From Roseimicrobium gellanilyticum (GTDB lineage Bacteria > Verrucomicrobiota > Verrucomicrobiia > Verrucomicrobiales > Verrucomicrobiaceae), in NCBI RefSeq assembly GCF_003315205.1, contig NZ_QNRR01000013.1:131959-195958 (forward strand): a stretch of 64,000 nucleotides of DNA, read 5' to 3'. The translations under genes and the position numbers were made by a program. This document shows, piece by piece, positions 9,725 to 52,200 of the stretch (positions are counted from its first letter, which is position 1; each line of letters opens with the position of its first letter). The notes beneath the pieces are model-generated. The model had not been told where the DNA came from, did no database searches, and saw only the letters and a list, made by a program, of their open reading frames with translations.

Positions 9725-10177
9725 TCAATCCCAGACATAACGTTCGTCGAATTCGACGTCGTGTTTCCTCAGGAAGGCGCGGAACTCGTCTTGAAAGGAG
9801 TGTTTTTGGTGGTGTTCGCGTTGATTGCGGATGTATTCGCTCACAGCATCCACGTTAGAGGAACTCACGGAGAAGGCTCCGTAACCGTGCTGCCAGTAAA
9901 AATCACGGAACTGGACGTGTTGTCCACGAAGCCAATTCGTGGAACCCTTCTTCAAGTCTCGCACCACATTGCTGATAGTCGCGGTCCGTGACAGGAGAAA
10001 CAACAAGTGCGCATGATCAGGCTCCGTGTTGATTTCCACGGATGAACAATCCGCCTCACGCAATACCCCACCCATGTAGTCGTGCAGCGCGGGACGGATT
10101 TCGTCCGGCAACACGCGCACGCGATCTTTCGTGGAGAAGATCAAGTGGAGGTAAACCTTGGCGAGGGACTGGGCCAT
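9725..10177 (-). CDS. tnpA: IS200/IS605-family Y1 (HUH) transposase, probably a REP-associated tyrosine transposase (RAYT).
   Basis: 150 aa. HUH motif DHAHLL. Catalytic-Tyr region FRDFYWQHGYGAFSV matches the IS200 TnpA 'W.RGY..S' signature. Local GC is clearly lower than the surroundings. Confidence 0.85.
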   Translation of the reverse strand: MAQSLAKVYLHLIFSTKDRVRVLPDEIRPALHDYMGGVLREADCSSVEINTEPDHAHLLFLLSRTATISNVVRDLKKGSTNWLRGQHVQFRDFYWQHGYGAFSVSSSNVDAVSEYIRNQREHHQKHSFQDEFRAFLRKHDVEFDERYVWD

Positions 10178-17617: not shown

Positions 17618-17737
17618 TAGCCGCAAAAAAGACGCAAAAAACACAAGAGGGATGGCCTCTTGGGTGGCGCTGCACCACTTGAGGTAGCAGTACCCAGCAC
17701 CGATCCCTTTTGAGTTTTTTGCGTCTTTTTGCGGCTA
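17618..17737. repeat. ~24-nt near-perfect A/T-rich inverted repeat (TAGCCGCAAAAAAGACGCAAAAAAC / GTTTTTTGCGTCTTTTTGCGGCTA) with a ~71-nt spacer, between convergent genes.
   Basis: Arms at 17618-17642 and 17714-17737. Arm 2 has one fewer T. The spacer contains a smaller hairpin (CAAGAGG-GATGG-CCTCTTG). Confidence 0.6.
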
Positions 17738-33266: not shown

Positions 33267-33702
33267 GTTCTTCTCTCAGGGGTGTGCCGCCCGTGACGGT
33301 CTCCCGCCGCGCGCAGCATGGTTGCTGTGGGGAAGACCATGAAGCCCGCGGTGCGAGCCTCAGAGATCGTCCCTCCCAATGATGCCTGCGAGGTTAGCTG
33401 GCGGGCTGGGCCTTGGAAGTGACCCCTGCGAGTGGTTACCCACCCCGTACGCCCCGTCCTGAGTTCTTGCGTTCCCAGGAGTTCGGTTCCCCCGCGCCAC
33501 TACTGAGGAAGCAGTAATGACTTCGGCTGACAGTGGGAAGATCCCATTATTTTTGTCTTTGTCAAATCGACCCGATGCCGTGCCATGAGGCTCAACGGGA
33601 TAATTCTTTCCAATACACCTTCCTGCACCACGACTTTCTGCCTCCCTTCGATTCTGCATTCTCATTCCTTGCAAACTAGATACATTATCCGTTCATCGCG
33701 CG

Positions 33703-34644: not shown

Positions 34645-34820
34645 GGCCTTGGACTGCGTGCAGCCTGCTGCCGCTTTGAAGAGTTCACAGCCTGCTGTGA
34701 CGATGATGACGCTCGCTCGCAAAGTGGCATGCCCATGAAGTGTGGCGACTTCGTCGCGGTGAAGCGTGCAGCAGGCTGCACTGAGGGAAAGCGGCAGCAG
34801 GCTGCACGCAGTCCAAGGCC
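34645..34820. repeat. Compound inverted-repeat element: a 33-bp perfect IR (34645-34677 / 34788-34820) enclosing three smaller palindromes (CACAGCCTGCTGTG; GCGACTTCGTCGC; GTGCAGCAGGCTGCAC).
   Basis: GGCCTTGGACTGCGTGCAGCCTGCTGCCGCTTT has its exact reverse complement at 34788-34820. Lies between convergent murI and amidase genes. Confidence 0.65.
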
Positions 34821-38325: not shown

Positions 38326-38500
38326 CGGGGTGGCTCCATGGTGGTCCGTTCACTCCGTGAGCGGTCAGTGGGGTAGCAACCTTCCTGATTTCTGAAACAA
38401 CCTTCGTGCTGCTCTGAATCCATTGGATGGAGAATACTTGGTCGCGTGCTTCCACGCTGACCGCACACGGAGTGGGCGGACCACTTTGGGGGCACCACAC

Positions 38501-39721
38501 TCACCCCTCCGTCTCCTGATCCGGAATCCGCGTGAAGGCGATGCGCATGGGCGCGTATTCCAAGGCGCCGAGGGCCCCGCCGAAGGTGACGGTATTCTTC
38601 CCGAGGCGCCGGTTCAGCATGTCCATGGCCTGGCAGATTTTCTCGTGGGCGGGATTGTGCAGGAGCAGGTCCGGTGTCACGCGTGAGGCGGGAATGAGAG
38701 GTGCGAAGGTCACGCCGGTGGCCTGTGGTGGGATACCGCCTTTTCGGGGACGGTGTTCCCAGAGTTTTTCCAACGCATCCAGAAACACAAAGGAGTCCTG
38801 CGTTTCTGTGAAGCGGATCTCGCGGGTCCACTCCTGCTTGTCCTCGTACTTGATGAAGGCCTGCAAGCCGGAGGCGTACATGTCCAGCTTCCGCAGGCGG
38901 GTGGCGGCTTTTTGCAGAAGACGATGCGACACGGCGCGCACGCCGATTTCGTTGCGCAGCTTTGTGGGCAGGATATGGGAGTGGCCGATGGTGCGGCGCT
39001 GCGTGGGCGGCAGCTCGGTCACTTCGCCGCGCAGCCAGTGATACATGTGGAAGCCATTGATGCTGCCCCACACGGCATGCAGGGTTTCACGCGACGCCGA
39101 GGTGAGCTGGGCCACGGTGGTGATGCCGTGATCATTGAGACGCCGCTCCATGTTCCGGCCAATGCCGCAGAAGTCGCGCAGCTTCAGGCGATGCAGGCAT
39201 TGTGGGAGGTCGGGCTTCTGGATGAGCGTGAAGCCATTCGGCTTGCCCATGTCTGAGGCGAGCTTGGCCAGGAAACGATTCGGAGCCATGCCCACAGAAC
39301 ACGTCACCACCTCGCCCATCTGGGCACGCAGGGTCTCCTTCACGCGCTGGAAGAACTTCGCGGCGTCTTCCGGTGTTTTGACGTGGTCCGGAAGGCGGCA
39401 CCAGACTTCGTCGATGGACATGACCTCGGCCACCGGCATGAAGACTTCCAGCGCAGTGAGGAAGCGGCGGTGGAACTCCAGGTATAAGGCGGGTCGCGAC
39501 TCCACGAGCACCACGTCCGGGTGCAGTTGCCGCGCCTCCCGCACCCGTGTGCCGGTCTTGATGCCGAATTTCTTCGCCTCCTTGCTGGCGGCGATGCAGG
39601 AGGTGGACTCCGCGACCACCGGCACAATACCGACGGGACGCCCCCTCAGCTCCGGACGTAGTTCCTGCTCCACCGAAGCGAAGAAGCAATCGAGGTCGAT
39701 GATGACATCTCGCGGAATCAC
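38501..39721 (-). CDS. dinB: Y-family DNA polymerase (DinB / Pol IV-like).
   Basis: N-terminal IIDLDCFFASVE and SIDEVW catalytic D/E motifs. ~406 aa. GTG start at 39721. Confidence 0.85.
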   Translation of the reverse strand: MIPRDVIIDLDCFFASVEQELRPELRGRPVGIVPVVAESTSCIAASKEAKKFGIKTGTRVREARQLHPDVVLVESRPALYLEFHRRFLTALEVFMPVAEVMSIDEVWCRLPDHVKTPEDAAKFFQRVKETLRAQMGEVVTCSVGMAPNRFLAKLASDMGKPNGFTLIQKPDLPQCLHRLKLRDFCGIGRNMERRLNDHGITTVAQLTSASRETLHAVWGSINGFHMYHWLRGEVTELPPTQRRTIGHSHILPTKLRNEIGVRAVSHRLLQKAATRLRKLDMYASGLQAFIKYEDKQEWTREIRFTETQDSFVFLDALEKLWEHRPRKGGIPPQATGVTFAPLIPASRVTPDLLLHNPAHEKICQAMDMLNRRLGKNTVTFGGALGALEYAPMRIAFTRIPDQETEG

Positions 39722-39730
39722 GGCCCGAGA

Positions 39731-39752
39731 TTACTGTTCTCGCGAACAGTAA
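39731..39752. promoter_or_regulatory. LexA-type SOS box: TGTTC-tcgc-GAACA inside the 22-bp palindrome TTACTGTTCTCGCGAACAGTAA, 10 bp upstream of the Y-family polymerase start.
   Basis: Perfect dyad. Matches the TGTTC-N4-GAACA motif reported for Verrucomicrobia LexA, and also CTGT-N8-ACAG. Confidence 0.6.
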
Positions 39753-39801
39753 TCAAGCTCGGATTTCACGGTTCTGCCATGCGGTGCCCATGACGGAAAG
39801 G

Positions 39802-39993
39802 TCAAGTCGGCAGCGGCGGATACAGGGGCATCATGCGCAGGCCCGCCGGTCCCAAAGTGTGTCGGACCGGGGGTGGCGGCGCGGAAGAAGAGTAGTTTCC
39901 GGTGCTGGCACAGGAGGCCAAGGTGCCTGAGGCCACGACGACCAGCAGCGAGCGAGTTGCCCAGAAGGTGATTTTCGTTTTCATACGAAGCAC
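39802..39993 (-). CDS. Small putative lipoprotein (63 aa).
   Basis: Signal + lipobox (LVVVASGTLASCAS), Pro-rich tail. Weak. Confidence 0.3.
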   Translation of the reverse strand: MLRMKTKITFWATRSLLVVVASGTLASCASTGNYSSSAPPPPVRHTLGPAGLRMMPLYPPLPT

Positions 39994-40142
39994 CTAAAGA
40001 ATCGTCTGTGTGCGTGGCGGTGGTGGCACTGGGTGCCATATGGTCTTTGTAAGTCTGCCGCTTTTCAAAGTGGTGGCTTGGTTGGAGATGGAGCGGTCAA
40101 AAGTCATAGCCGCTGAAGCCCAAGATAACGCCTTATGTCACT

Positions 40143-40350
40143 CCTCTGGTCTATCGCTTGGCGCGCTTGGTACACCGGTGGGGAGCCGCTGCGCCGGCTT
40201 CCTAACTAAAGCGGGCGGAGGCAGGGCGGAGCATCCGGGTGCCGGCAGCTTGCCACGCGCTAGTTCCACACCGCCCCCGCCCACCTAATTTGGAAGCCGG
40301 CGCAGCGGCTCCCCACCGGTTTTTTGGTTGGCACGGTGGTAGACCAGAGG
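40143..40350 (+). repeat. ~208-bp structured element, a MITE-like or ncRNA candidate. Three nested stems: 11-bp terminal inverted repeats (CCTCTGGTCTA / TAGACCAGAGG), a perfect 28-bp IR (40175-40202 / 40292-40319) followed by TTTTTT, and an inner G-rich/C-rich stem.
   Basis: CCGGTGGGGAGCCGCTGCGCCGGCTTCC vs GGAAGCCGGCGCAGCGGCTCCCCACCGG. A U-tract follows on the + strand. Confidence 0.6.
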
Positions 40351-40614
40351 AATGCGCAAGGGTCAGCATCGCTTCTGTATATTCATCTCCTCAATACGTC
40401 CCCGGCAGTGGTGGCAACGGTGGGCGAGGCAGGCCGAGCACGCGATGGGGCGGAGGTGGAAGCCTGGGTGGCGGTAGATCCGCACACGAGGTGACCATGC
40501 CACAGGCCATGCTTAGAAGAAGCAGCCCCGCGGCCCAACGTGCGATGTTAAAATTCGTTCCTCTCATGATGGGGAGGGAATCGCCGGTGCCGCAGCTTGT
40601 GGTGGTAAGCGCGC

Positions 40615-42024
40615 TCAATCGACCGCGTCCTCGTCCAGCACGACGTGCTTGGGCTTGAGCACGAGATAAAGCACCAAGCCGATTGCGATGATGACGCCGG
40701 CGATGAGGGGTGCCCGTTGCGCTGCGACGTTGCTGCTGTCAAAAGCCTGCTTCACCCGAACGACAATCAATGTCGCACAAACCAGAGCGCCCAAGATGGG
40801 CACTGCCACGGGTACTTCGAACTTCCCCTTCGGCTCTCCTTTGCGACGCTTCAGAATAACCAGAGCCACGTTCACCACGGTGAAAACCATCAACAGGAGA
40901 AGCGAAGTGGATTCCGCCAGTTGCTTCACGTCGGCCATCAAGATGAGCGTGGTTACAATCAGGAAGAGAACAACCACCGCAACGTGTGGAGTTCTGCGCT
41001 TGGGATGAATGCGTCCGATCCATGCCGGAAGGAGCCCTTGAGCACTCATGCCGTAGATCAATCTCGATCCCATCAGATAGTTCAGCAGGGCTGTATTGCC
41101 GATGGCGAAAATCGCGACTACGGCGAACACCTTGTCCACATTGGCGAACCATGGCGCCGCAGCCGCAGCCACGTCCACGAGCGGCGATTTGCTGCTGGCC
41201 AGCTTTTCCCATGGCACCACCGACACCGCTGTGATGGCCACTGCCATATAGATGACAGTCGATGCCATCATTGCCACCACGAGTCCGCGAGGAAGATTTC
41301 GCGGGGCATCTTTCACTTCCTCGCTTACATTTAAAATGTCCTCAAATCCGATAAACGAATAGAAGGTAAGCACCGCTCCCTGCAATACCACCAGTGCCAG
41401 AATGCTCTCCGCACCTGATTTGGCGGGAGGAATCTCCAGGTAATTCACGGATCCCCACCAAGGAATGCCCACTGCGAGGATGAATATGAGACCGCTGGCC
41501 TCGACAATGGTGCAGAGGATATTCACCCACATGCTCTCCCGAATGCCGCGATAGATGACGCTGCCAATGATGAATACCACCCCGATGGCAAGCAATTTGA
41601 TGTCCCATCGAACATCGCCTGACTTCCATGCTTCAGTATCCCAACGAAATGCGTGGAACTTTTCCGCCTGCTCAAGGATCGCCTGCGCGCCAGTACCCAT
41701 GCTCGTGAGACCGCTCATCATCACAGCAATGCCGACGACATACGTGAGCCATGCTCTTCCATAAGCACGCTGGGAGACGTAGGCGGCACCCGCAGCGCGA
41801 GGACAACGGCTCCCGACACACGCGTAGCTAAGACCAGTCAACAAGGCGGCGACCATGGCAGCAGCAAACGCCAGCCACACCGCATTCCCCAGCGAATCAG
41901 CAGCCCGCCCAATCAGAGTATAAATCCCCGCGCCCAACATCGAGCCCAGTCCATAGAGGGCCACCTGCCAGAAGCCGAGGGTTTGCTTGAGCTTCGGTCC
42001 TGTGGAGGAGTGGTCGTCCGGCAT
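40615..42024 (-). CDS. APC-superfamily amino acid permease.
   Basis: 12 TM. N-terminal …GSMLGAGIY… motif typical of the APC family. 469 aa. Confidence 0.85.
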   Translation of the reverse strand: MPDDHSSTGPKLKQTLGFWQVALYGLGSMLGAGIYTLIGRAADSLGNAVWLAFAAAMVAALLTGLSYACVGSRCPRAAGAAYVSQRAYGRAWLTYVVGIAVMMSGLTSMGTGAQAILEQAEKFHAFRWDTEAWKSGDVRWDIKLLAIGVVFIIGSVIYRGIRESMWVNILCTIVEASGLIFILAVGIPWWGSVNYLEIPPAKSGAESILALVVLQGAVLTFYSFIGFEDILNVSEEVKDAPRNLPRGLVVAMMASTVIYMAVAITAVSVVPWEKLASSKSPLVDVAAAAAPWFANVDKVFAVVAIFAIGNTALLNYLMGSRLIYGMSAQGLLPAWIGRIHPKRRTPHVAVVVLFLIVTTLILMADVKQLAESTSLLLLMVFTVVNVALVILKRRKGEPKGKFEVPVAVPILGALVCATLIVVRVKQAFDSSNVAAQRAPLIAGVIIAIGLVLYLVLKPKHVVLDEDAVD

Positions 42025-42080
42025 GCGCCCTTATGACAGAGGTTCATTCCTCTGCCAAGCAGAAGGCACGCCACCGAGGG

Positions 42081-43208
42081 CTACACACCTGCCGCAATCG
42101 TCTTGCGCTGCTCTGGAATGGCGCTGTCGATGATGCCATCCGCGGTTTCCTGCTTCAGGCGAAGCTGGCCACACGCCGCCGCGATGTCGTGCCCCTTCTC
42201 CGTGCGGAGCGTGGCCATCACATCATAGGACGCCACGGTGTCGCGGAAGAGTTTCTGCACCTTCTCACTCGGTCGCACCCAGGGGAGACCTTCAACGGTG
42301 TTGTACGGGATGAGATTCACCTTCGCATTGAGACGCGCCGCGACTTCCCCGAGGAGATTCGCCTGCTCGCGGGAATCGTTCACGTCCTTGATGAGGATGA
42401 ACTCAAAGGTGATGTACTGCTTCTTTTTCTCATTCCAGTACTCCAGCGCCTCGAAGAGCTCAGCGAGCGGGTACTTGCGATTCACCGGCATGATGCGGTC
42501 GCGCACAGGGTCGCTGGCACCGTGCAAGGAGATGGCAATGCGAACCTGGAGCGGAAAGTCAGCGAGCTTCTTGATCTGCGGAGCGAGGCCGCTGGTGCTC
42601 ACCGTCATGTGACGGGCACCGATGTTCATGCCCCACTGAGCATTCAGAATCGTGATGGCCTTGGTGACATTCGTGTAGTTCGCCATCGGCTCGCCCATGC
42701 CCATGAAGACGAGATTGTCCACGCGTACGCCGGCGAGCTTTTCCACCTGCACGACCTGCTCCACGATTTCACCCGCGGTCAGATTGCGCGTGAATCCTGC
42801 GAGGCCGCTCGCACAGAATTTGCAGTCATAGGCGCAGCCCACCTGCGAAGACACACACAGCGTGCGGCGATCGGAGCGGCCACCGAGCAGGCCCATGGAG
42901 GCCGGGATGAGCACGGTCTCGATGAAGCGGCCGTCATGCAGCTTGAAGAGGTACTTCCGCGTCGTGTCTTCGGAACCTTCCACCCGCGCGTACTTCATCG
43001 TGCGCAGGCTGAAGCGCTCGGCCAGTGCAGCCTGCAGCGGCTTGGAGAGGCTGGACATCTCCTCAAACGTTTCCGTGCGCTTCCGGTAAACCCACTCCAT
43101 GATCTGCTTCGCGCGGAAGGGCTTCTCATTCCACTCCGCGAGCATGGGCACCAGTTCCTCAGGAGTGGTGGCTAGCAGGGACGGGGGAATGGCAGGGGTG
43201 GACGACAT
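42081..43208 (-). CDS. rlmN: Radical-SAM 23S rRNA (A2503-C2) / tRNA methyltransferase.
   Basis: CVSSQVGCAYDCKFCASG radical-SAM motif. The N- and C-terminal regions are conserved. 375 aa. Confidence 0.9.
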   Translation of the reverse strand: MSSTPAIPPSLLATTPEELVPMLAEWNEKPFRAKQIMEWVYRKRTETFEEMSSLSKPLQAALAERFSLRTMKYARVEGSEDTTRKYLFKLHDGRFIETVLIPASMGLLGGRSDRRTLCVSSQVGCAYDCKFCASGLAGFTRNLTAGEIVEQVVQVEKLAGVRVDNLVFMGMGEPMANYTNVTKAITILNAQWGMNIGARHMTVSTSGLAPQIKKLADFPLQVRIAISLHGASDPVRDRIMPVNRKYPLAELFEALEYWNEKKKQYITFEFILIKDVNDSREQANLLGEVAARLNAKVNLIPYNTVEGLPWVRPSEKVQKLFRDTVASYDVMATLRTEKGHDIAAACGQLRLKQETADGIIDSAIPEQRKTIAAGV

Positions 43209-43309
43209 GAGCAGGGTAGTTTACCCCAGATTGACCGGGGTGCAAAAAGGAAGGCACCTCCGGAGAGGTGCCTTTCGGGGAAACAGGAGCTTGCGCTTCT
43301 GTATGAGGC

Positions 43310-43795
43310 TCAGTCACCGCGTGAGCGGCCTTTGCTGTCCCCCTTGCTGGAGGACTTGCTGCTGGAGCCGGAGCTCTTCTTGCTGGAAGAAGAACTGCTG
43401 CTGCTCATGTTGCTGTGCTGGACGCGCTTCTCCCGGCTGGAGTGGTAGTGGTCACCATGGGCGTAGCCTTTGCCGGGCACGTAGTTGGGACCACGACTGG
43501 AGGACGAAGACGAGGACTTCTTGTAGTAGTGCTTGTGGTCATCATGGTCGTGATGATCGTGGTCATGGTAATTGCGACGGTAGTAGGAGCTGCCGTAGTA
43601 CCCGCCATAGTAGCCTCCTCCCCCGTAATAGCCGGGGTAGTAGGAGCTGCGCGGGTAGTAGCCGCCTCCGCCGTAGTAGCCACCGTCATAGTAACCGCCG
43701 TCGTTGTAGGCGTAGGGATCAACCACACAACTTGAGAGGAGCAGGGAAAGACCCGCCAGAGTGAGGAGGGAAAGCTTCGCGTAGAGGGATTTCAT
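43310..43795 (-). CDS. Low-complexity lipoprotein: (G)YY repeats, an HDHDHHDHDDH histidine/aspartate block, and Ser-rich tracts.
   Basis: Lipobox LSLLLSSC after MKSLYAKLSLLTLAG (ATG 43795). Composition is strongly biased to G/Y/S/H/D. Confidence 0.55.
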   Translation of the reverse strand: MKSLYAKLSLLTLAGLSLLLSSCVVDPYAYNDGGYYDGGYYGGGGYYPRSSYYPGYYGGGGYYGGYYGSSYYRRNYHDHDHHDHDDHKHYYKKSSSSSSSRGPNYVPGKGYAHGDHYHSSREKRVQHSNMSSSSSSSSKKSSGSSSKSSSKGDSKGRSRGD

Positions 43796-43882
43796 GTTCG
43801 TAAGGGGTTTGGACGCGAGGATGGATAAAACATTCAAATACAGATCGAAACCCCAGCGTCAGTCGGGCGGGTCTTCGGAAAA

Positions 43883-44953
43883 TCAGGAGGAGAGGTGCAT
43901 CCAGTCCGGATTGGCCTCCGCAAATTTCGCCACCTCGGAAAAGATGGCGTCGCGGCGGATTTCCGGCTGCCATCCCCAGAGGGAGCGGGCCTTGCTGTCA
44001 TCCAGCGCCAGCCAGGCAATGTCGAAGGGGCGCTCACTCCCATCCTCCTGAACCTCATTGCGATAACCAAAGTGCTGCTCACACCAGGCGCTGAGCTCCG
44101 CCAGGGAGAAGGTGCTCTCCGGGCCGCCGGCCACATTCAGCACCCGAGGCCGGTCCTCCGCCTCACCCTGCTGGATCTGGCTGAACACAAGGCCCGCAAC
44201 ATCATCGGGATGAACCACATCCCGAACCTGCCACCCCTTCCCGCCGAAGCCAAGGTACCGGAGACGCCGACTCTCCCGCCAGGAGTGAATCCAGAAGGCC
44301 ACGATGCCCTGGTCTGCCCGGCCAAACTGGCCTGCACCGGCCATGACGCCGCAGCGGTTGATGTGCACGGGGAGGTCGAAGGCGCTCGCGTATTCCAGCG
44401 CCAGATCCTCGCTCATCTTCTTGCTCACGCCATAAAGAGAGAGGGGCGGCGTGGTGGAGAAGTCCTCCGTCACGCCCCGAGCGGAGACGCCAACCGGCAA
44501 GCTTTGCTCTTCATCCAGCACAAAGCGGCTGCCCTTCTGCGCAACTGGCAGGGAGGCGAGCGGTCCTACGCCATACACGCGGCTGGTGCTCAGCAGCACA
44601 AAGCCCGCCGACTGGCGGCGGCAGAACTCCAGCATGTTCACCGTACCCTGGAGGTTGTGCTCGATGACCTGGCGACTGCTGCTCAGGCCATCCACACCAG
44701 CCAACACGCTCGGGTTCGCCGCGGCGTCGATGACCCAGTCCACGGGCGGCAGGTTGTCGAAGTCACTGGCACAGCGCACGTCGCCGTGGAAGAAACCCAC
44801 GCCGAGGTCCTTCAGCACAGGGCGGTTCCGCTCACTGCCCATGCGGCAGAGATTGTCCATGCCCAGCAGGGTCCAGCCCTCCGTGCTCTCCCGCAGACGG
44901 CGCAGAATCCGGCTTCCGACAAATCCACAAGCTCCTGTGACCAATACTCTCAT
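43883..44953 (-). CDS. NAD-dependent epimerase/dehydratase (extended SDR).
   Basis: VLVTGACGFVGS Rossmann motif. Y-x-x-x-K region. 356 aa. Confidence 0.8.
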   Translation of the reverse strand: MRVLVTGACGFVGSRILRRLRESTEGWTLLGMDNLCRMGSERNRPVLKDLGVGFFHGDVRCASDFDNLPPVDWVIDAAANPSVLAGVDGLSSSRQVIEHNLQGTVNMLEFCRRQSAGFVLLSTSRVYGVGPLASLPVAQKGSRFVLDEEQSLPVGVSARGVTEDFSTTPPLSLYGVSKKMSEDLALEYASAFDLPVHINRCGVMAGAGQFGRADQGIVAFWIHSWRESRRLRYLGFGGKGWQVRDVVHPDDVAGLVFSQIQQGEAEDRPRVLNVAGGPESTFSLAELSAWCEQHFGYRNEVQEDGSERPFDIAWLALDDSKARSLWGWQPEIRRDAIFSEVAKFAEANPDWMHLSS

Positions 44954-45129
44954 GCTGCGCCGATGGTGGCGTAGGCATGGCGGGCGTCAATGAAGAAGCC
45001 GGGAATCCCACGTCATGTCCCGTGAGACACCTGCCAGAGTCACGTTGCCTGCCTGCCACGATCCTCCTTTGCGACTTCGCTGCTTTGCGATAGAACTCTC
45101 AAGTCGCTCATTCCCCACCCTCTGCAACC

Positions 45130-45504
45130 ATGGCCGCCCCTGCAAAGCCACAAAGCGTGACGGAGTACATTGATGATGCTGCGCCGGAGGCCCGGAAGCG
45201 TTTGCGTGAAATGCGTGCCTGTCTTCGCAAGGCGGCGCCGGGTGCGGAGGAGAGCCTGAAGTGGGGAGTACCGGCATTTTCATATGAGCGCATCCTGTTC
45301 ACGTATGCGGCGTTCAAGAAACATGTGAGCCTGTTCCCCACGCCCGCAGTGTTGAAGGTCTTTGCAAAAGAACTCTCCGGCTACAAGACCTCAAGCAGCA
45401 CGGTCCAATTTCCCTTGGACAAACCTCTTCCCGTGGATCTCATTCACCGCATTGCGCTGCTTCGCGTGAAGGAGTGCACGGAAAACGATGCGAAGTGGAT
45501 GTAG
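45130..45504 (+). CDS. DUF1801 (YdhG-like) domain protein.
   Basis: …ESLKWGVPAF…VSLFP… pattern typical of DUF1801. 124 aa. Confidence 0.6.
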   Translation: MAAPAKPQSVTEYIDDAAPEARKRLREMRACLRKAAPGAEESLKWGVPAFSYERILFTYAAFKKHVSLFPTPAVLKVFAKELSGYKTSSSTVQFPLDKPLPVDLIHRIALLRVKECTENDAKWM

Positions 45505-45544
45505 CTGAAAGCGGCAGTGCCTCCGGAACCTCACCGAATCTCAT

Positions 45545-46129
45545 ATGAGCACACCTTCACGTTTCGCCACGAGGGCTCTTTTCGCTCCGGTCATCGTGCT
45601 TTCATGCATGCTTGTCTTCAGTTCGAAAGCGAAGGCTGGGTGGGATGTATCCCAAACGGCCGCCAGGGAGAGCCATGGGCTGCCTGCGCAGGTGGTATTC
45701 GTGTGGGTGCCAGGCCCGGCGGCGGAATACCCCACCATGGCAGTGGCACTCCAGGACGTCGCGGACGACGGGAAGCTGAACCAGCTCCGACTGCTCTCCG
45801 TGACAAAACTGCTTTCAGATGACAACTTCCAGAAGGAGGTCTTCCAACAGCTTGAAGCCATCGCCCCGAAGGATCTGAAGGAAGCCCTCGAGTCAGCGGG
45901 GAACATGCACAATCCCAAGATGACGGCACTGCGCCCAAGCTTTGAGAAAGCAGTGCTGACCACGCCCACGGTGTTGCGGTTCAAGGAAGACCTTGCGCGC
46001 CACCAGTTGGAGATTGCCGGGGCATCGTGTGAGAAGTTTTCGTTCGCGACTACTGGAGGCTCCAAACGCGTCTTCGGCTTCTTGACGTTGACCCTTGCCG
46101 GGGCTTCGAACAAGGCGCCCGCGCCCTGA
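45545..46129 (+). CDS. Hypothetical secreted protein.
   Basis: Signal peptide. No recognisable domain. Confidence 0.4.
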   Translation: MSTPSRFATRALFAPVIVLSCMLVFSSKAKAGWDVSQTAARESHGLPAQVVFVWVPGPAAEYPTMAVALQDVADDGKLNQLRLLSVTKLLSDDNFQKEVFQQLEAIAPKDLKEALESAGNMHNPKMTALRPSFEKAVLTTPTVLRFKEDLARHQLEIAGASCEKFSFATTGGSKRVFGFLTLTLAGASNKAPAP

Positions 46130-46179
46130 GCACGGCCTTCTCGTCACTTCCCGCTTCGGACAGGCAGCCACCACCACCA

Positions 46180-46545
46180 ATGCCCTCTCCCCACTTCACC
46201 TCTGTCATGCCAAGCGTGCCTGTCGCGGAACTGCCGCGCGCGGTCGCCTTCTACGCCGAGAATCTCGGCTTTGAGGTCGAATTCCAGAATGGCACCACCT
46301 ACGCCATTGTGTCGCGCGACGGCATCCAGCTTGGGATTGGCGCGCCGCCCATCTCCACAGTGCCGGCAGGTCATGGGCGCTGCTACTTCAAGCTCTCCAC
46401 CGGCATCGATGAACTGTACGAGGGTTATCGTTCCCGCGGGGTGACAATAATTCACGAGCTGCGCGATGAGAGCTACGGCATGAGGGAGTTCATGATTTCC
46501 GATCTGGATGGGAACCAGATCAATTTTGGCCAACCGCTGCCGTAG
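46180..46545 (+). CDS. VOC-family (glyoxalase / bleomycin-resistance-like) protein.
   Basis: Paired beta-alpha-beta-beta-beta modules. …FYAENLGFEV… N-terminal motif. 121 aa. Confidence 0.7.
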   Translation: MPSPHFTSVMPSVPVAELPRAVAFYAENLGFEVEFQNGTTYAIVSRDGIQLGIGAPPISTVPAGHGRCYFKLSTGIDELYEGYRSRGVTIIHELRDESYGMREFMISDLDGNQINFGQPLP

Positions 46546-46608
46546 GAACCCAGCTTCCGCATTCCTTTCGGTTGAGCGAACGCGAGATGCGTCTAGCCTC
46601 GGCGCTTC

Positions 46609-48396
46609 ATGACTTCGCCAAACCGGAAACCGCTGCTCAGCAGGCTGCTGTTTGTCCTGGGCTGGACGCTGGCGTGGTCGCCGGCTTTGCTCATTCTCAC
46701 CATGCTGCTGCCTCTCCGGGTGCCGGTGCCCTTCGAGGATGCGTGGGCATTCGTGAAACAGTATCGCGATTGGTGGGAGGGTGACTATGGCTGGCGCGAG
46801 TTCCTTGCGCCGCACAACAACCACCCTTCCGCTTCGGGGAAGGTGTTCTACTTCATCGCACTTCACTGGCTGGGTGGTGACGTGGGTGTGCTGCCGCTCG
46901 TAGCATGGGCATTCTCCCTCATCATCGCCGTATCCGTGTGGGTGATGGCACGCTCGCTCTGGATGGGGCGTTCATCACGCGGGATGCTGCTGATGTTCTG
47001 TGCGAATCTCACCATCTTCACGGCAGCGCAGGGGCATTCGTGGGTGTGGGACTTCGTGTTTCAGAACTTCATTCCAGGAATGGCTTTCTGCGCCGCGCTG
47101 GCCACCTTGTGGAAATGGCCGGGGTCATGGTCTGCCCTCGTCGTGGCGTGGTGTCTTTCCATCATGGCCACATTCTCCTTCGGCACGGGGTTTCTCGCCG
47201 GGCTGCTGCTGACACCGATGGTGGCAATGCATTTCCGGGAGAAGCCCCTGGCGTGGCGTGGCGCGGTCACCGCGATCTGGTTGCTGCTGACAGGTGGCGC
47301 GGCCTTTCTCGCGCTCTCTGCCTTTGGCGAAGCGACCTACACCGGGGATGAATCCCGCGTTGGCAGCCTGTTGGAGCAGCCCGTACTCTTGGCACAATTT
47401 GTCCTCGTCCTGCTGGGCTATCTGCTCGGTAATGGCACCACCATGGAACCGGCCCTGCTCTGCGCTCTCGCCGGACTGGGGCTTGTCGTCATCCTGCTGG
47501 CATGCGTCTTTCGCGTGTGGCAGCTGCGCAAGGAGCCGGGCATGGTCCAGGCAGCCATGCCCTGGGTGCTGACGACCCTCTTTGGGTTGCTCAATGCCGG
47601 ACTCATCAGCTACGGAAGGCTGCGGTCGTCAATGATTTCCGCGATGGCTCCCCGGTATGTGACGTTCACGCTCTTCTTCACCCTGGGTGTGCTCCTGCTG
47701 GCAGCGGTCGTCGCGGTACGCGACAAGCCTTCAGGCTGGTTCCGCGTTGGCATGCGGCGCGCGGGGCTGTTGCTGGTGGGGGGACTCATTGCCCTGCACG
47801 TGGTGAACTGGAATCATGGCTGGCAACACATGAAGTGGGAGCACGAGCGGATGCAGCAGGACCGGGCGCTGCTCTCCTTTGCCAAGGTGCTGCCGCTGGA
47901 CCCGGAGGTGATGTGGCAGAATCTCGACCACAAAGATCTGACGACGCGGCTGGCCCTGTTCCTTCATGAGCATGACCGATTGAAGAGCGTGCGCCTGGTA
48001 AAGGGCGTGGCCATCACGGATTTCCGTCGCGGCTCCCCACTGCCGGACAAATGGGCCTGGCTGGAAGCGCCCGTGGTGCACGAGGGTGTGATGCATCTCA
48101 GCGGCGCCTGTGGCGTCTCCAAGGACATGGTCAGCCTTCCGGAACTTGTGCTCATCACCGCCCAGTCGGCGGATGCGGGCGAGAGCGTGGTCTCGTTTGC
48201 CACACCGCGACAGCCTTTCGACTTCTATGAGAATGAATGGCTGCGACGCCAGCATCCGGGGCACTACTTCGGCTGGGCGCGAGAGCTCCCTGTGTCGAGA
48301 TTTCCGAAGGGGAAGGTCACGGTCCGCGCGTATGGGTATTGGATGAAGGGATTCACCGTGCGGGCGCTGGACCGGGAGCATGTGATTGACCTTTGA
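46609..48396 (+). CDS. Polytopic membrane protein with a C-terminal soluble domain (GT-C-like architecture). Paralog of 54011-56041.
   Basis: About 11 TM segments. First-loop acidic motif PFEDAWAF. Shared motifs with the paralog (APRY…; …HG(W)QH(M)…W…R; P(L/V)(D/N)P…). Confidence 0.65.
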   Translation: MTSPNRKPLLSRLLFVLGWTLAWSPALLILTMLLPLRVPVPFEDAWAFVKQYRDWWEGDYGWREFLAPHNNHPSASGKVFYFIALHWLGGDVGVLPLVAWAFSLIIAVSVWVMARSLWMGRSSRGMLLMFCANLTIFTAAQGHSWVWDFVFQNFIPGMAFCAALATLWKWPGSWSALVVAWCLSIMATFSFGTGFLAGLLLTPMVAMHFREKPLAWRGAVTAIWLLLTGGAAFLALSAFGEATYTGDESRVGSLLEQPVLLAQFVLVLLGYLLGNGTTMEPALLCALAGLGLVVILLACVFRVWQLRKEPGMVQAAMPWVLTTLFGLLNAGLISYGRLRSSMISAMAPRYVTFTLFFTLGVLLLAAVVAVRDKPSGWFRVGMRRAGLLLVGGLIALHVVNWNHGWQHMKWEHERMQQDRALLSFAKVLPLDPEVMWQNLDHKDLTTRLALFLHEHDRLKSVRLVKGVAITDFRRGSPLPDKWAWLEAPVVHEGVMHLSGACGVSKDMVSLPELVLITAQSADAGESVVSFATPRQPFDFYENEWLRRQHPGHYFGWARELPVSRFPKGKVTVRAYGYWMKGFTVRALDREHVIDL

Positions 48397-48561
48397 CGTC
48401 CTTCTCGTGTCGACGAGTCCGAGACTATCGTTTTCTCCCAAGCGCCATAATGGCATTGACACGCCCCTCCCCTTTCTCAAACATCCATGCACCTGAGTGT
48501 TCGCCGGGAAACCTTTCCGGGAAGTGGCGCAGCGTCTGCTCTTACGGAGCGCCGATGCGGC

Positions 48562-49107
48562 ATGCCTGGCATCATCACAGTTCCAGCCGCCACCGTGAAA
48601 CCCGTTCCAACATCTGACAACCGCTATGGGGGAGGCCGTCCGCCGAAGTTTGACGAGCCCAGCCGTCCCATCACGGTCACGTTGCCGGAAAGCACGCTGC
48701 AGGGACTCCAGAAGATCGACCCCGACCGCGGTCGTGCGATCGTGCGCCTGACTCAGGAAGCGCTGCGTGATCAGGAACAGGAGCAACCGCTCGTGGAAGT
48801 GCTGGAGATGGCGCCCAATACCGGGCTCATTGTCGTTGGCCCCAGTCTCACGCTACAGCGCATCCCGTTTCTCCATCTGGTGGAAGTGTCCCCAACCCGT
48901 TTCCTCATCGCACTGGATACCGGCAACGATTACCGTGCGCTGGAACTGGCTGTCAGGGACATCTTGGAGGAAGTGCCAGCCGCTGAAACTCGGGAGCGCG
49001 CCCTGCTCAACCAGCTTCTGGATGTCACCAAGAAGCTCCGCCAAAGCGAGCGGGTCAGCATGGCTGAAATCCTGCTGGTGAAGTTGGACGGCAAGCGCAA
49101 GCGCTGA
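48562..49107 (+). CDS. Hypothetical protein.
   Basis: ORF in the right orientation between membrane paralog A and the PSCyt gene. No domain recognised. Confidence 0.35.
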   Translation: MPGIITVPAATVKPVPTSDNRYGGGRPPKFDEPSRPITVTLPESTLQGLQKIDPDRGRAIVRLTQEALRDQEQEQPLVEVLEMAPNTGLIVVGPSLTLQRIPFLHLVEVSPTRFLIALDTGNDYRALELAVRDILEEVPAAETRERALLNQLLDVTKKLRQSERVSMAEILLVKLDGKRKR

Positions 49108-49285
49108 CGTCCCGCTTCCGTTTGAGCACCACCCTCGACAGGCAAAAATCCTTTTTTTGCTTTTCTTTGCTTCGCTTGGCGGCAATTTCTACGTAAAAAT
49201 ACAGCAAAGTTTTCTATTTCTAAGTAGAAATTCGTGGTGGATAAGCCATAGAAACGTAGCATCGTCCATCCCCGCCGCTCGTCTC
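49108..49285 (+). promoter_or_regulatory. Unusually AT-rich promoter region with three copies of a TTTCTAcGTA-like motif, two of them forming a 12-bp IR (AATTTCTACGTA / TAAGTAGAAATT).
   Basis: 49184-49195, 49221-49232 and 49247-49260. Local GC is far below the genome background. Confidence 0.45.
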
Positions 49286-52200
49286 ATGACCCTCATGACT
49301 TCTCCGCAACGCTGGATTGCGGTTGGTGCATGTCTTATCTGCACCAACGGGCTGGCGCATGCTGCGCAGGAAGTTCTCCCTCAAAAACTCGAGTACAACA
49401 AACACATCCGCCCCATCCTGGCAGACCGGTGTTTTCGCTGCCACGGAGCGGATGAACGGGCACGCAAGGCCAAGCTACGGCTCGATGATTTCGACCAAGC
49501 CGTTTCAGCGAAGGCCCTGATTCCGGGAGACGCGGAGCACAGCGCGCTGGTGCAGCGCATCCTCACCGCGGACCAGGAGGATGTGATGCCTCCGCCGGAC
49601 TCTCACCTGTCCCTGAGCGCGGACGAAAAGGCACTGTTGAAACGCTGGGTCGAGGAAGGGGCTGCGTATCAAAAGCACTGGGCATTCATACCGCCGGTGA
49701 TGCCTGCAGTGCCCCAGGTTTCCCATGAGGGGACACAGCCGGAGAACCCGATCGATGCCTTTGTTCTCGCCAACCTGAAGGCACACGGACTCAAGGCAGC
49801 GCCACCCGCAGAGCGTGCGGCGTGGCTGCGCCGCGTCACGTTTGCATTGACGGGTCTGCCACCCAGCACCGCAGAGCTGGAGGCATTCTTCGCAGACACG
49901 TCGCCGGTAGCACGTGAGAAGGTGGTGGATCGTCTTCTGGATGCGCCAGCCTATGGGGAGCATTTTGGAAAACAGTGGATGGATGCCGCCCGCTACGCGG
50001 ACAGCTATGGGCGCCACGAAGATGGCGACATGATCGCATGGCCGTGGCGTGACTGGGTGATTCACGCCTTCAACTCCAATCTGCCCTACAATCGTTTCGT
50101 CGAATGGCAGACGGCGGGAGATCTTTTGCCCGGAGCCACCGTGGAGCAGCGTGTGGCCACCGCCTTCAACCGCTTCTCCCCGCAGTCCAACGAGAGCGGC
50201 AGTGACCCGCTGGAGTTTCGCCTCGACCAAGTGAGTGACCGCGTGCGAGTGAATGGCCTGGCATTCATGGGACTCACCATGGAGTGCGCGAAGTGCCACG
50301 ACCACAAGTACGATCCCATCTCCCAAAAGGAGTATTGGCAGATGGCCGCGATGTTCGACAACATCGAGGAAAATGGCGTCTACTCGCAGTACTGCCCGAA
50401 GGCCGTGCCCTCGCCGTCCATCCTGCTGCCAAACCAGGCGGAACAACTGCGCCTCGGTGCCTTGCAATGGCAGATCGCAGCAGTGGAACGTGAGCTCGAT
50501 GACATCAAAAAGCGCGTGCGCCCCCAGTACGATGCGTGGATCGCCGCGAATGGTGTGCCCGGAGAGCTGACCCCCGGCGCGTGGAACCGGGTAAAAGGCT
50601 GGTTCGGTGGGGGTGATATCGCTCCCTACAAGCCGCAAGCCAAGGGGCGCTTCCTCTTCGATGACGCGAAACCCAAGGGCGGCAAGGACGTGGTCAACAA
50701 CGCGAACAAGAAGAAGCCCGGTCGTGAGCGTGCCAAATTGGAGTCCATCGAAGGACCCCCAGGACGGGGGCGCGCGGTGCTGCTGAAGGGGGATGACGAA
50801 ATCACCTTCCCGGGGCTCGGCGAGTATCACAAGCACGACCGCTTCAGCTTTGCTCTCTGGATGCAACCGCGGGAACATCGCGACCGCGCGGTGGTGATCT
50901 CCTGGTCACGCGGCGGACTGGATGATGGCCGTGGATATGAAGTGCTGCTGGAGAATGAAGTGCCCTCCTTCGCCCTGATGCATTTCCATCCCGGCAATGA
51001 GATCCGCATCCGCGCCAAGTCACCGCTGCCGCTGAATCAATGGACCCATTTCGCGGTGAGCTATGATGGCAGCAGCCGCGCCTCGGGCCTGAAGATGTGG
51101 ATCAACGGTGAGCCTGTGGCCAGCGAGACCGTGCAAGATCATTTGCAGAAGGACATCGCCCGGCGTGAGGAGTGGGGCGACATCGATCGCGATGCCATCT
51201 TCTTCGCGCTGGGCGGGCGGTTCCACGATTCACCGCTCAAGAACTGTGCCGTAGATGAGTTCCATGTCTTCAGCCGCTCCCTGAGCGATGGCGAAACCAG
51301 ACATCTCGCCGGGCTGCATGCGACCGCCGATGACTGGTATGACTGGTGGCTGCAAACGAAGTGCCAGGAGTGGAAGGACATGGCGCACTCGGCCATGCTT
51401 CTGCGGAAAAAACTCACCGCCACCACGAATGACGTGCTGGAGATGATGGTAATGCAGGAGCGGCCTGCACTGCGGCCAAGCTTTGTCCGCGTGCGTGGTG
51501 ACTACCGGCAGCCTTCCGCTGAGGTGAAGCCGGGAATGCCGGAGGCCGTGCTCCCCTTCCCGGACAAACTGCCGCGCAACCGTCTGGGTCTCGCCCAGTG
51601 GCTCACCAGTTCCGAGCACCCGCTGACCAGTCGCGTGGCGGTGAACCGGCTGTGGCAGACTGTGTTTGGCCGTGGGCTCGTGGGGACACCAGAGGACTTC
51701 GGCACGCGTGGCGAACTGCCCACCCATCCTGAACTGCTGGACTGGCTGGCCTGCACCTTCACCCAACACGGATGGGACGTGAAGCGCATGGTACGTCTCA
51801 TGGTGCTGAGCGAAACGTTTGGACAGAGCATACGCCCTGAAAACGCGGCCACCCTTTCCCAGGACCCGGAAAACAAACTGCTGGCGCGTGGCCCACACGT
51901 GCGACTGACCGCGGAAGAACTGCGCGACCAGGCGCTCGCGACCTGTGGTCTGCTCAATCCCAAAATAGGCGGTCCCAGCGCGCGTCCGTATGTGCCGGAA
52001 CATTTCTATCAGGAGTCCGGTCTCCAGCAGAGCTACAAGACGGATACAGGGGGGAACCTGTACCGCCGCAGCCTCTACACCTTCTGGCGCCGCACCCTGC
52101 CACCACCGGATCTCGCCGCGTTCGATGCGCCTTCACGCGAGTTCTGCGTGGTGCGTCGTGAGCAGACCACCTCCCCAGCCCAGGCACTCATGCTGCTGAA

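Follow-up and report, generated by a model that had tools for sequence, protein, structure and literature searches.

A probable REPIN-type repeat in Roseimicrobium gellanilyticum and its dispersed relatives in other Verrucomicrobia

Palindromic repeats in bacterial intergenic DNA

The ERIC, YPAL and Correia repeats of enterobacteria, Yersinia and Neisseria are imperfect palindromes of 100–200 bp that occupy transcribed intergenic regions, fold into long hairpins in RNA and can alter the stability of the mRNAs that contain them. Another class, that of REP dimers and REPINs, is tied to RAYTs, HUH tyrosine transposases that leave no target-site duplications. A REP is defined by a GT(A/G)G head and a palindrome (PMC3686654). 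In a REPIN, two inverted REPs and the spacer between them form a hairpin in which compensatory spacer changes are common; REPIN singlets are taken to be the remains of decay, and flanking DNA forms part of the tandem clusters (PMC3116915). As set out in the text of Di Nocera et al. 2013 (PMC3733652), HH dimers carry their tags on the outside and enclose conserved, structured spacers of 20–100 bp, and the features described there also include G.T stem pairs, heterodimers, GTGG variants within GTAG families, and the coexistence of several GTAG families (GTAG-17 to -20) in the verrucomicrobium Opitutus terrae. According to the same text, GTAG dimers lie preferentially between genes that are co-directional or convergent, and the contexts of the family treated here agree with this.

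The subject of this study is a nested palindrome at positions 40139-40354 of a 64,000-nt stretch of Roseimicrobium gellanilyticum DNA (the window). Judged from its sequence, its folding and its homologues, it is probably a REPIN-type repeat belonging to a small intergenic family of Roseimicrobium-like Verrucomicrobia; it is a new member of an established type of element, examples of which had already been reported from this phylum.

With the REPINs of Pseudomonas fluorescens SBW25 and other bacteria (PMC3116915; PMC3337134), the element shares an arrangement of inverted REPs and spacer in one long hairpin, REPs that are more conserved than the spacer, spacer pairing that is kept by compensatory changes, and an extragenic position. 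One-armed singlets that resemble decayed doublets are common to both (here loci L003, L004 and L049), as are tandem clusters with flanking DNA (here a related class in L056). However, REPINs number tens to hundreds per genome, whereas there is one copy per 64 kb here and very few in public data, and no RAYT is linked to the window family. The window element is also larger, at about 141 nt from REP to REP and about 216 nt with its outer blocks, and its family is set apart by the conservation of those blocks about 20 nt beyond the REP heads and by a spacer that is strongly conserved and asymmetric, with distinct A and B halves.

The GTAG/GTGG REP families, as the texts of PMC3733652 and PMC3686654 describe them, are alike in having a GT(A/G)G tag beside a stem of 6–13 bp with G.T pairs. 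Heterodimers with different stems (here L047, L048 and L052) and several REP classes per genome (here a second class at 38329-38496 of the window) likewise have counterparts in the text of PMC3733652. Unlike the usual loop of 2–3 nt given in these texts, that of the window REP has 6 nt, and its stem and loop, GGAGCCG-CTGCGC-CGGCTTCC, are not among the sequences printed in them, a comparison of the consensus by description under which the family may equal a published one; the intragenic GTAG examples of O. terrae in the text of PMC3733652 encode other peptides. The ERIC, YPAL and Correia repeats are comparable as palindromic intergenic repeats of similar kind that form a long hairpin, but they have terminal inverted repeats (and, in Correia, TA target duplications) and lack GT(A/G)G-tagged REP hairpins, and no sequence similarity between them and the window element was detected, by Rfam or other match.

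Architecture of the element

As delimited by inverted repeats, folding and family alignments, the whole element is a REPIN-like, head-to-head dimer of REPs that has inverted blocks on its outside, and is assigned to the minus strand, here called the B strand, the orientation in which homologues were aligned. Whereas the near-perfect nested palindrome occupies 40139-40354, weak similarity to other copies reaches about 40125-40368 in alignments, and an nhmmer profile of seven copies matches 40115-40373 of the window (E = 8e-70). A previous sequence-only reading had described three nested complementary layers, namely 11-bp terminal inverted repeats, a perfect 28-bp inverted repeat (40175-40202 and 40292-40319) and an innermost G-run/C-run stem, and inverted-repeat analysis recovers all of them in their places. 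The middle repeat is in fact perfect over 29 nt (40174-40202 and 40292-40320) and extends to 35 nt with two mismatches, while the inner G-run/C-run stem is imperfect. In the outer layer, CCTCTGGTCTA (40143-40153) pairs with TAGACCAGAGG (40340-40350) as the core of a repeat that runs to 15 nt with one mismatch; an inverted-repeat search gives its arms on the + strand as CACTCCTCTGGTCTA on the left (40139-40153) and TAGACCAGAGGAATG on the right (40340-40354), 93% complementary to one another. Taken by itself the 11-nt outer repeat is not significant, since 12 of 100 shuffles contained two or more matches. The 28-mer of the middle layer occurs in the 64-kb window as the two arms only, with 0 matches expected.

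The predicted folds lie far beyond those of shuffled sequences, as holds for RNA of the + strand (-151.3 kcal/mol, z = -10.7), RNA of the - strand (-159.0 kcal/mol, z = -12.6) and DNA of the - strand (z = -8.9), and in each case 0 shuffles were as stable. When four full copies (window, L046, L047 and L048) are folded jointly the long hairpin is kept, with 76 pairs of which three have compensatory changes. The strand preference of the fold is inconsistent, with the window and L046 folding better on the B strand and L047 on the A strand.

Within the middle layer lie the two REP arms. The A arm (GGTGGGGAGCCGCTGCGCCGGCTTCC, 40177-40202, + strand) has a GTGG head at 40178-40181 and an 8-bp hairpin (40181-40188 with 40195-40202) around the loop CTGCGC (40189-40194); the B arm, located by arm search and arm alignment at 40292-40317 on the - strand, is an identical 26-mer with its head likewise pointing outward. 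Thirteen arms from eight loci conform to the 26-nt pattern GGT(G/A)G-GGAGCCG-CTGCG(C/T)-CGGCTTCC, in which the head is followed by the 8-bp stem and 6-nt loop. All 13 begin with GGT(G/A)G and thus carry the GT(A/G)G tetranucleotide at the 5' side, as GTGG in 11 and GTAG in two, and the stem-loop stands directly downstream of this tag, with 104 of 104 stem cells paired and one G.T pair invariant, as against 36–72% pairing in register-shifted controls. Compensatory double changes are found in three of the eight stem pairs (A-U to G-C, G-C to A-U, and G-C/C-G to C-G/G-C); these represent only three to four independent events, and 0 of 500 shuffles reached the observed values.

The compensations occur within one arm and are not mirrored in the partner arm of L047, L048 or L052. 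In these three copies the partner is a different variant, and the long hairpin is mismatched while each local hairpin is intact; in L049, a compensation occurs without any partner arm. Because they lie within single arms, even a partnerless one, the compensations point to the small local hairpin as the constrained unit. Support for that hairpin comes from covariation, since in isolation it is no more stable than shuffled GC-rich 32-mers (DNA fold z about -0.3).

Between the arms is an 89-nt self-pairing spacer (40203-40291) defined by folding and alignments, with a G-rich half on each strand and an apex near 40237-40262. Its halves are AGCGGGCGGAGGCAGGGCGGAGC ('A-type') on the + strand and AGGTGGGCGGGGGCGGTGTGGAAC ('B-type') on the - strand, and the same asymmetry, with a B-type AGGTGGGCGGRGGYGGTGTGGAAC on one strand and an A-type AGAGCGGGCGGAGGCGGGGCGGAGC on the other, is fixed in every full copy (L046, L047, L048 and L052 in addition to the window); the palindrome is therefore evidently old and not made anew at each site. 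The two inverted REPs, heads outward, and the conserved 89-nt spacer that pairs with itself to form a hairpin give this head-to-head dimer the architecture of a REPIN.

A homologous spacer is also present in a second REP class, at 654-1152 of L056 (IMGVR_UViG_2883497546_000001, the contig that holds L004). There, two tandem units that are about 90% identical repeat with a period of 268 nt. Each contains a pair of GTAG-tagged REPs of another sequence, GGTAGGGATGCGCTCCTGCGCGTCCG, set heads outward around a spacer of the G-run/C-run design found in the window family, and an A-run stands before the head. In one of the right-hand REPs, 13 nt are inserted.

The outer block has the family consensus TCCTCYGGTCTR and stands about 20 nt outside the REP head. 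It is conserved in L003, L047, L048, L049 and L052 and degenerate in L004. The window, L047 and L048 have both blocks (11–15 bp), but one side is missing from the otherwise complete L046 and L052. Similarity between copies runs a few nucleotides beyond the blocks.

The sequence-only reading had seen no convincing protein in the region, and comparison of the copies bears this out, as no reading frame is consistently open across them, stops interrupting the frames in different copies. A protein-coding reading was accordingly dropped, the likeness of the 'peptides' from the two strands being a by-product of the palindromic DNA. The similarity of 76–78% between an arm and neighbouring lipoprotein coding sequence was judged a chance GC-rich resemblance.

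Setting of the locus and dispersal of the family

The element sits in a 406-nt spacer between two genes that had been described as minus-strand; they are, and both are real genes conserved in Roseimicrobium sp. ORNL1. Taken here as context only, the downstream gene (39802-39984, -) encodes a small Pro-rich lipoprotein with a signal peptide and the lipobox LASC, and has its orthologue at 9750-9926 of the ORNL1 locus L050, while the upstream gene (40391-40567, -) encodes a paralogous small Pro-rich lipoprotein with the lipobox TSC (about 9330-9505 of L050). The two have about 58–60 codons and end in the Pro-rich tails PPPRLPPPPHRVLGLPRPPLPPLPGTY and APPPPVRHTLGPAGLRMMPLYPPLPT. Further out, a dinB gene preceded by a LexA box lies downstream, and genes for an amino-acid permease and rlmN lie upstream. 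The LexA/SOS-box-like sequence, TTACTGTTCTCGCGAACAGTAA, is a perfect palindrome (CTGT-N8-ACAG) at 39731-39752, 10–30 nt upstream of the start of the dinB-like Y-family polymerase, and is conserved in ORNL1 and L052.

Between the window and ORNL1, DinB is 97% identical in amino acids and the region is 76–86% identical in nucleotides, and it is from the latter figure that the two hosts are assigned to separate species within one genus. ORNL1 keeps both lipoprotein genes at the syntenic site but has an unrelated 192 nt in place of the window's 357 nt with the element, and no family copy was found in 21 kb of its DNA. In the relative L052, whose DinB is 88% identical, the copy lies about 1.6 kb away, beyond dinB, in the spacer between the convergent dinB and esterase genes; neither the window nor ORNL1 has a family copy in that spacer. 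Since ORNL1 is empty at the syntenic site and the L052 copy is elsewhere, the genus has evidently seen gains or losses of the element at different sites, a pattern that indicates no mechanism by itself, and the window copy is, on present synteny, a lineage-specific arrival between the two lipoprotein genes. No clean alignment of filled and empty sites was obtained with ORNL1 or L052, the intergenic DNA being too diverged to place the ends or the target.

A search for further copies yielded homologues at seven other loci (L003, L004, L046, L047, L048, L049 and L052), making eight with the window, at 78–88% identity over 94–211 nt. All-against-all BLAST confines the similarity between loci to the element, the flanking genes being unrelated. 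Carriers include Verrucomicrobia MAGs, metagenome contigs and one prophage region. All eight copies are intergenic; no two share a gene context, and both orientations to the neighbouring genes occur. Five (window, L046, L047, L048 and L052) are full palindromes, while the other three (L003, L004 and L049) have one conserved half with the other decayed or absent.

The copies came to light by several routes. An exact arm 24-mer identified L003, a locus in a Verrucomicrobia MAG, and an 18-mer identified L004, an IMG/VR contig with the copy in a prophage morphogenesis region. Because gene prediction frequently yields spurious ORFs across intergenic repeats, a protein collection was also queried; a six-frame peptide of the conserved core retrieved two "hypothetical proteins" and an HMM of the spurious ORFs two more, and the contigs behind these four (L046, L047, L048 and L049) hold clear homologues of the element. 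The L052 copy surfaced by chance in a synteny look-up. Exact arm patterns (24-mer and 20-mer) proved too strict, as true copies differ at 1–5 arm positions. In the species genome collection the 24-mer matched one genome only, and in JGI metagenome contigs the 20-mer matched 38 loci, all of them chance matches in coding DNA (GEPLRRL-type) and none the element. Scans of viral contigs with five patterns gave only one contig with a copy, and the family profile found no second copy in the 64-kb window, which is thus single-copy. Overall the family looks rare and low-copy, unlike classical REPIN populations.

The window and the related loci also contain other repeats. In the convergent dinB/esterase spacer of the window, at 38329-38496, is a second, unrelated GTGG-tagged REP dimer with heads outward and 50-nt arms that are 80% complementary; its REP reads approximately GGTGGTCCG(C/T)(C/T)CACTCCGTG(T/A)GCGGTCAG, with compensation in the local stem. 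In L052, the copy of the family studied here sits within the spacer of a dimer of this second type. A 176-bp hairpin with perfect 33-nt arms but no GT(A/G)G tag lies between convergent genes at 34645-34820 and is kept at the syntenic site of ORNL1 (L050 14944-15116, 83.5%); a half-unit homologous to it adjoins the REPIN-like copy in L047 (about 556-620), forming a mosaic of repeat families. An A/T-rich 105-bp hairpin at 17626-17730 has 28-nt arms that are 93% complementary (GCCGCAAAAAAGACGCAAAAAACACAAGAGGGAT...), and intergenic DNA of L047 and L048 contains comparable motifs of the GCAAAGACGCAGAGG type. A sequence of about 90 nt, 77% identical, is common to the prophage contig L004 (3291-3379) and the unrelated metagenome contig L048 (1288-1376), a sign that these Verrucomicrobia may have yet another family of interspersed repeats. 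The only match in the window at a gathering score of Rfam is a c-di-AMP riboswitch (ydaO/yuaA leader, RF00379) at 33368-33538 on the - strand (56.7 bits against a gathering score of 38).

Class of the element and its significance

The sequence-only reading had offered a miniature transposable element as one possibility, and the mobile part of that proposal leads in the right direction, in that there is a dispersed family in unrelated contexts whose presence and absence vary among congeners. Its members are, however, unlikely to be classical MITEs, i.e., deletion derivatives of a DDE-type insertion sequence moved in trans via CCTCTGGTCTA ends with the production of target-site duplications. Although outer inverted blocks of 11–15 bp are conserved in several copies, such a block seems not to be an obligatory terminus, because L046 and L052 are otherwise complete yet have it on one side only, and conservation peaks in the internal GT(A/G)G-tagged hairpins rather than at the ends. 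No direct repeat flanks any full copy, a search for target-site duplications abutting either possible boundary having been negative in the window, L046, L047, L048 and L052, and no transposase with matching ends was found at any locus examined. Hence, "MITE-like" was most likely right in spirit and wrong in class, the sequence pattern being that of a REP dimer/REPIN and not of a MITE with TIRs and TSDs.

There is also a slight chance that the element is a low-copy, horizontally travelling hairpin module instead of a member of an ordinary RAYT-driven REPIN population, with the REP-plus-G-run half kept for a host or phage function. That half could be a protein-binding or G-quadruplex-prone signal in DNA or RNA, or a portable cassette for termination or mRNA stabilization. 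The location of one copy in a prophage morphogenesis region and the tandem sister class in the same viral contig would fit such a module, which would explain why near-invariant singlet halves stand beside decayed partners.

A structured RNA gene or cis-regulatory RNA, whether a small RNA of the + strand that ends at the U-tract, as the sequence-only reading had proposed, or an mRNA element of the sense strand, is improbable. The fold is extremely stable on both strands, the REP stem has its invariant G.U pair, a number of the differences between arms are compatible with G.U pairing on the minus (sense) strand, whose fold in the window is about 8 kcal/mol more stable, and the TTTTTT reported directly after the 28-bp repeat is indeed there, on the + strand only (40320-40325), as the complement of six A before the head of REP-B on the minus strand. 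Yet the T-run is absent from most copies, the copies lie in unrelated contexts and in both orientations to their neighbours, the strand preference of the fold is reversed in L047, and at the syntenic site the congener ORNL1 does without the element. A search of 39700-40700 revealed no sigma-70-like promoter. An Rfam scan had been suggested as a check, and with Rfam 15, at gathering as well as permissive thresholds, no family matched the element; the only hits were generic GC-hairpin matches to plant and animal miRNAs, at 59 bits against a gathering score of 168. The independent small RNA with its terminator consequently found no backing in Rfam, promoter-like sites, T-run conservation or copy orientation.

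It is highly improbable that the structure is a large (bidirectional) terminator or attenuator hairpin that evolved in place and belongs to no repeat family. An intergenic location, a GC-rich stem and T6 on one strand are what such a hairpin would have, and in L052, read in the direction of the upstream esterase gene, the hairpin is followed by an equivalent T-run. Homology of 78–88% over up to about 210 nt at unlinked loci in different genomes, however, is not convergence, and a terminator scan made no call here. An A-run before the head is seen only in the B arms of the window and L046 and the A arm of L052, L004 having AAAACA. Because the T6 of the window is on the + strand, which has no upstream gene, the window copy is not placed to act as a terminator, though some copies may double as one. 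At this locus there is no stem with a U-tract downstream of a same-strand gene, and the hairpin is by its sequence not a canonical terminator for its minus-strand neighbours, since the U-run lies on the opposite strand.

Scarcely credible is an inverton in which the 29-bp inverted repeats would be recombination sites around an 89-bp invertible segment: the repeats are perfect, the segment is short, and the short-read contigs of SRR7174658 (Logan contigs L001 and L002, apparently from the same genome, which equal window 38458-40200 and 40292-52024) end inside both REP arms, at 40200 and 40292, without the 89-nt spacer, but contig breaks at long hairpins are expected from de Bruijn assembly or poor coverage, inversion of a near-palindromic segment changes little, and the reading was rejected for lack of a nearby recombinase gene and for the fixed A/B orientation in all full copies.

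The REPIN-type reading carries with it a mode of spread and a possible effect on transcripts. By comparison with other GT(A/G)G-tagged REPs and REPINs, the element would be non-autonomous and depend for its copying on a RAYT, a single-copy HUH Y1 tyrosine transposase that recognizes the GT(A/G)G head and hairpin on single-stranded DNA. In single-stranded DNA or in RNA the unit can take two forms, a pair of small hairpins or a single long one, and one-armed copies would be decayed, immobile remnants. A tblastn and motif probe with an approximate query found no RAYT-like gene in the window or the family loci (about 200 kb), a weak test given that RAYTs are single-copy. As the neighbouring genes have the minus (B) strand as their sense strand, read-through from the permease and lipoprotein genes would put a hairpin of roughly -160 kcal/mol into mRNA. 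Such a hairpin, to judge by analogy with the REPs of E. coli, could bring 3'-5' exonucleases to a halt or recruit RNase III. A role in the protection or processing of mRNA 3' ends is, on that analogy, plausible.

For annotation, the region is to be labelled a REP dimer/REPIN-like repeat and not a gene, and no fewer than four "hypothetical proteins" in public collections (P0001-P0004) are translations of spurious ORFs that run through its copies. Short-read assemblies also break at the element. The Roseimicrobium clade adds a family to the GT(A/G)G-tagged REPs known from Opitutus, and several REP classes coexist around dinB in the source genome. If a cognate RAYT exists, the family, with its low copy number and a member in a prophage, would lend itself to studying how REPINs become established and spread between genomes.
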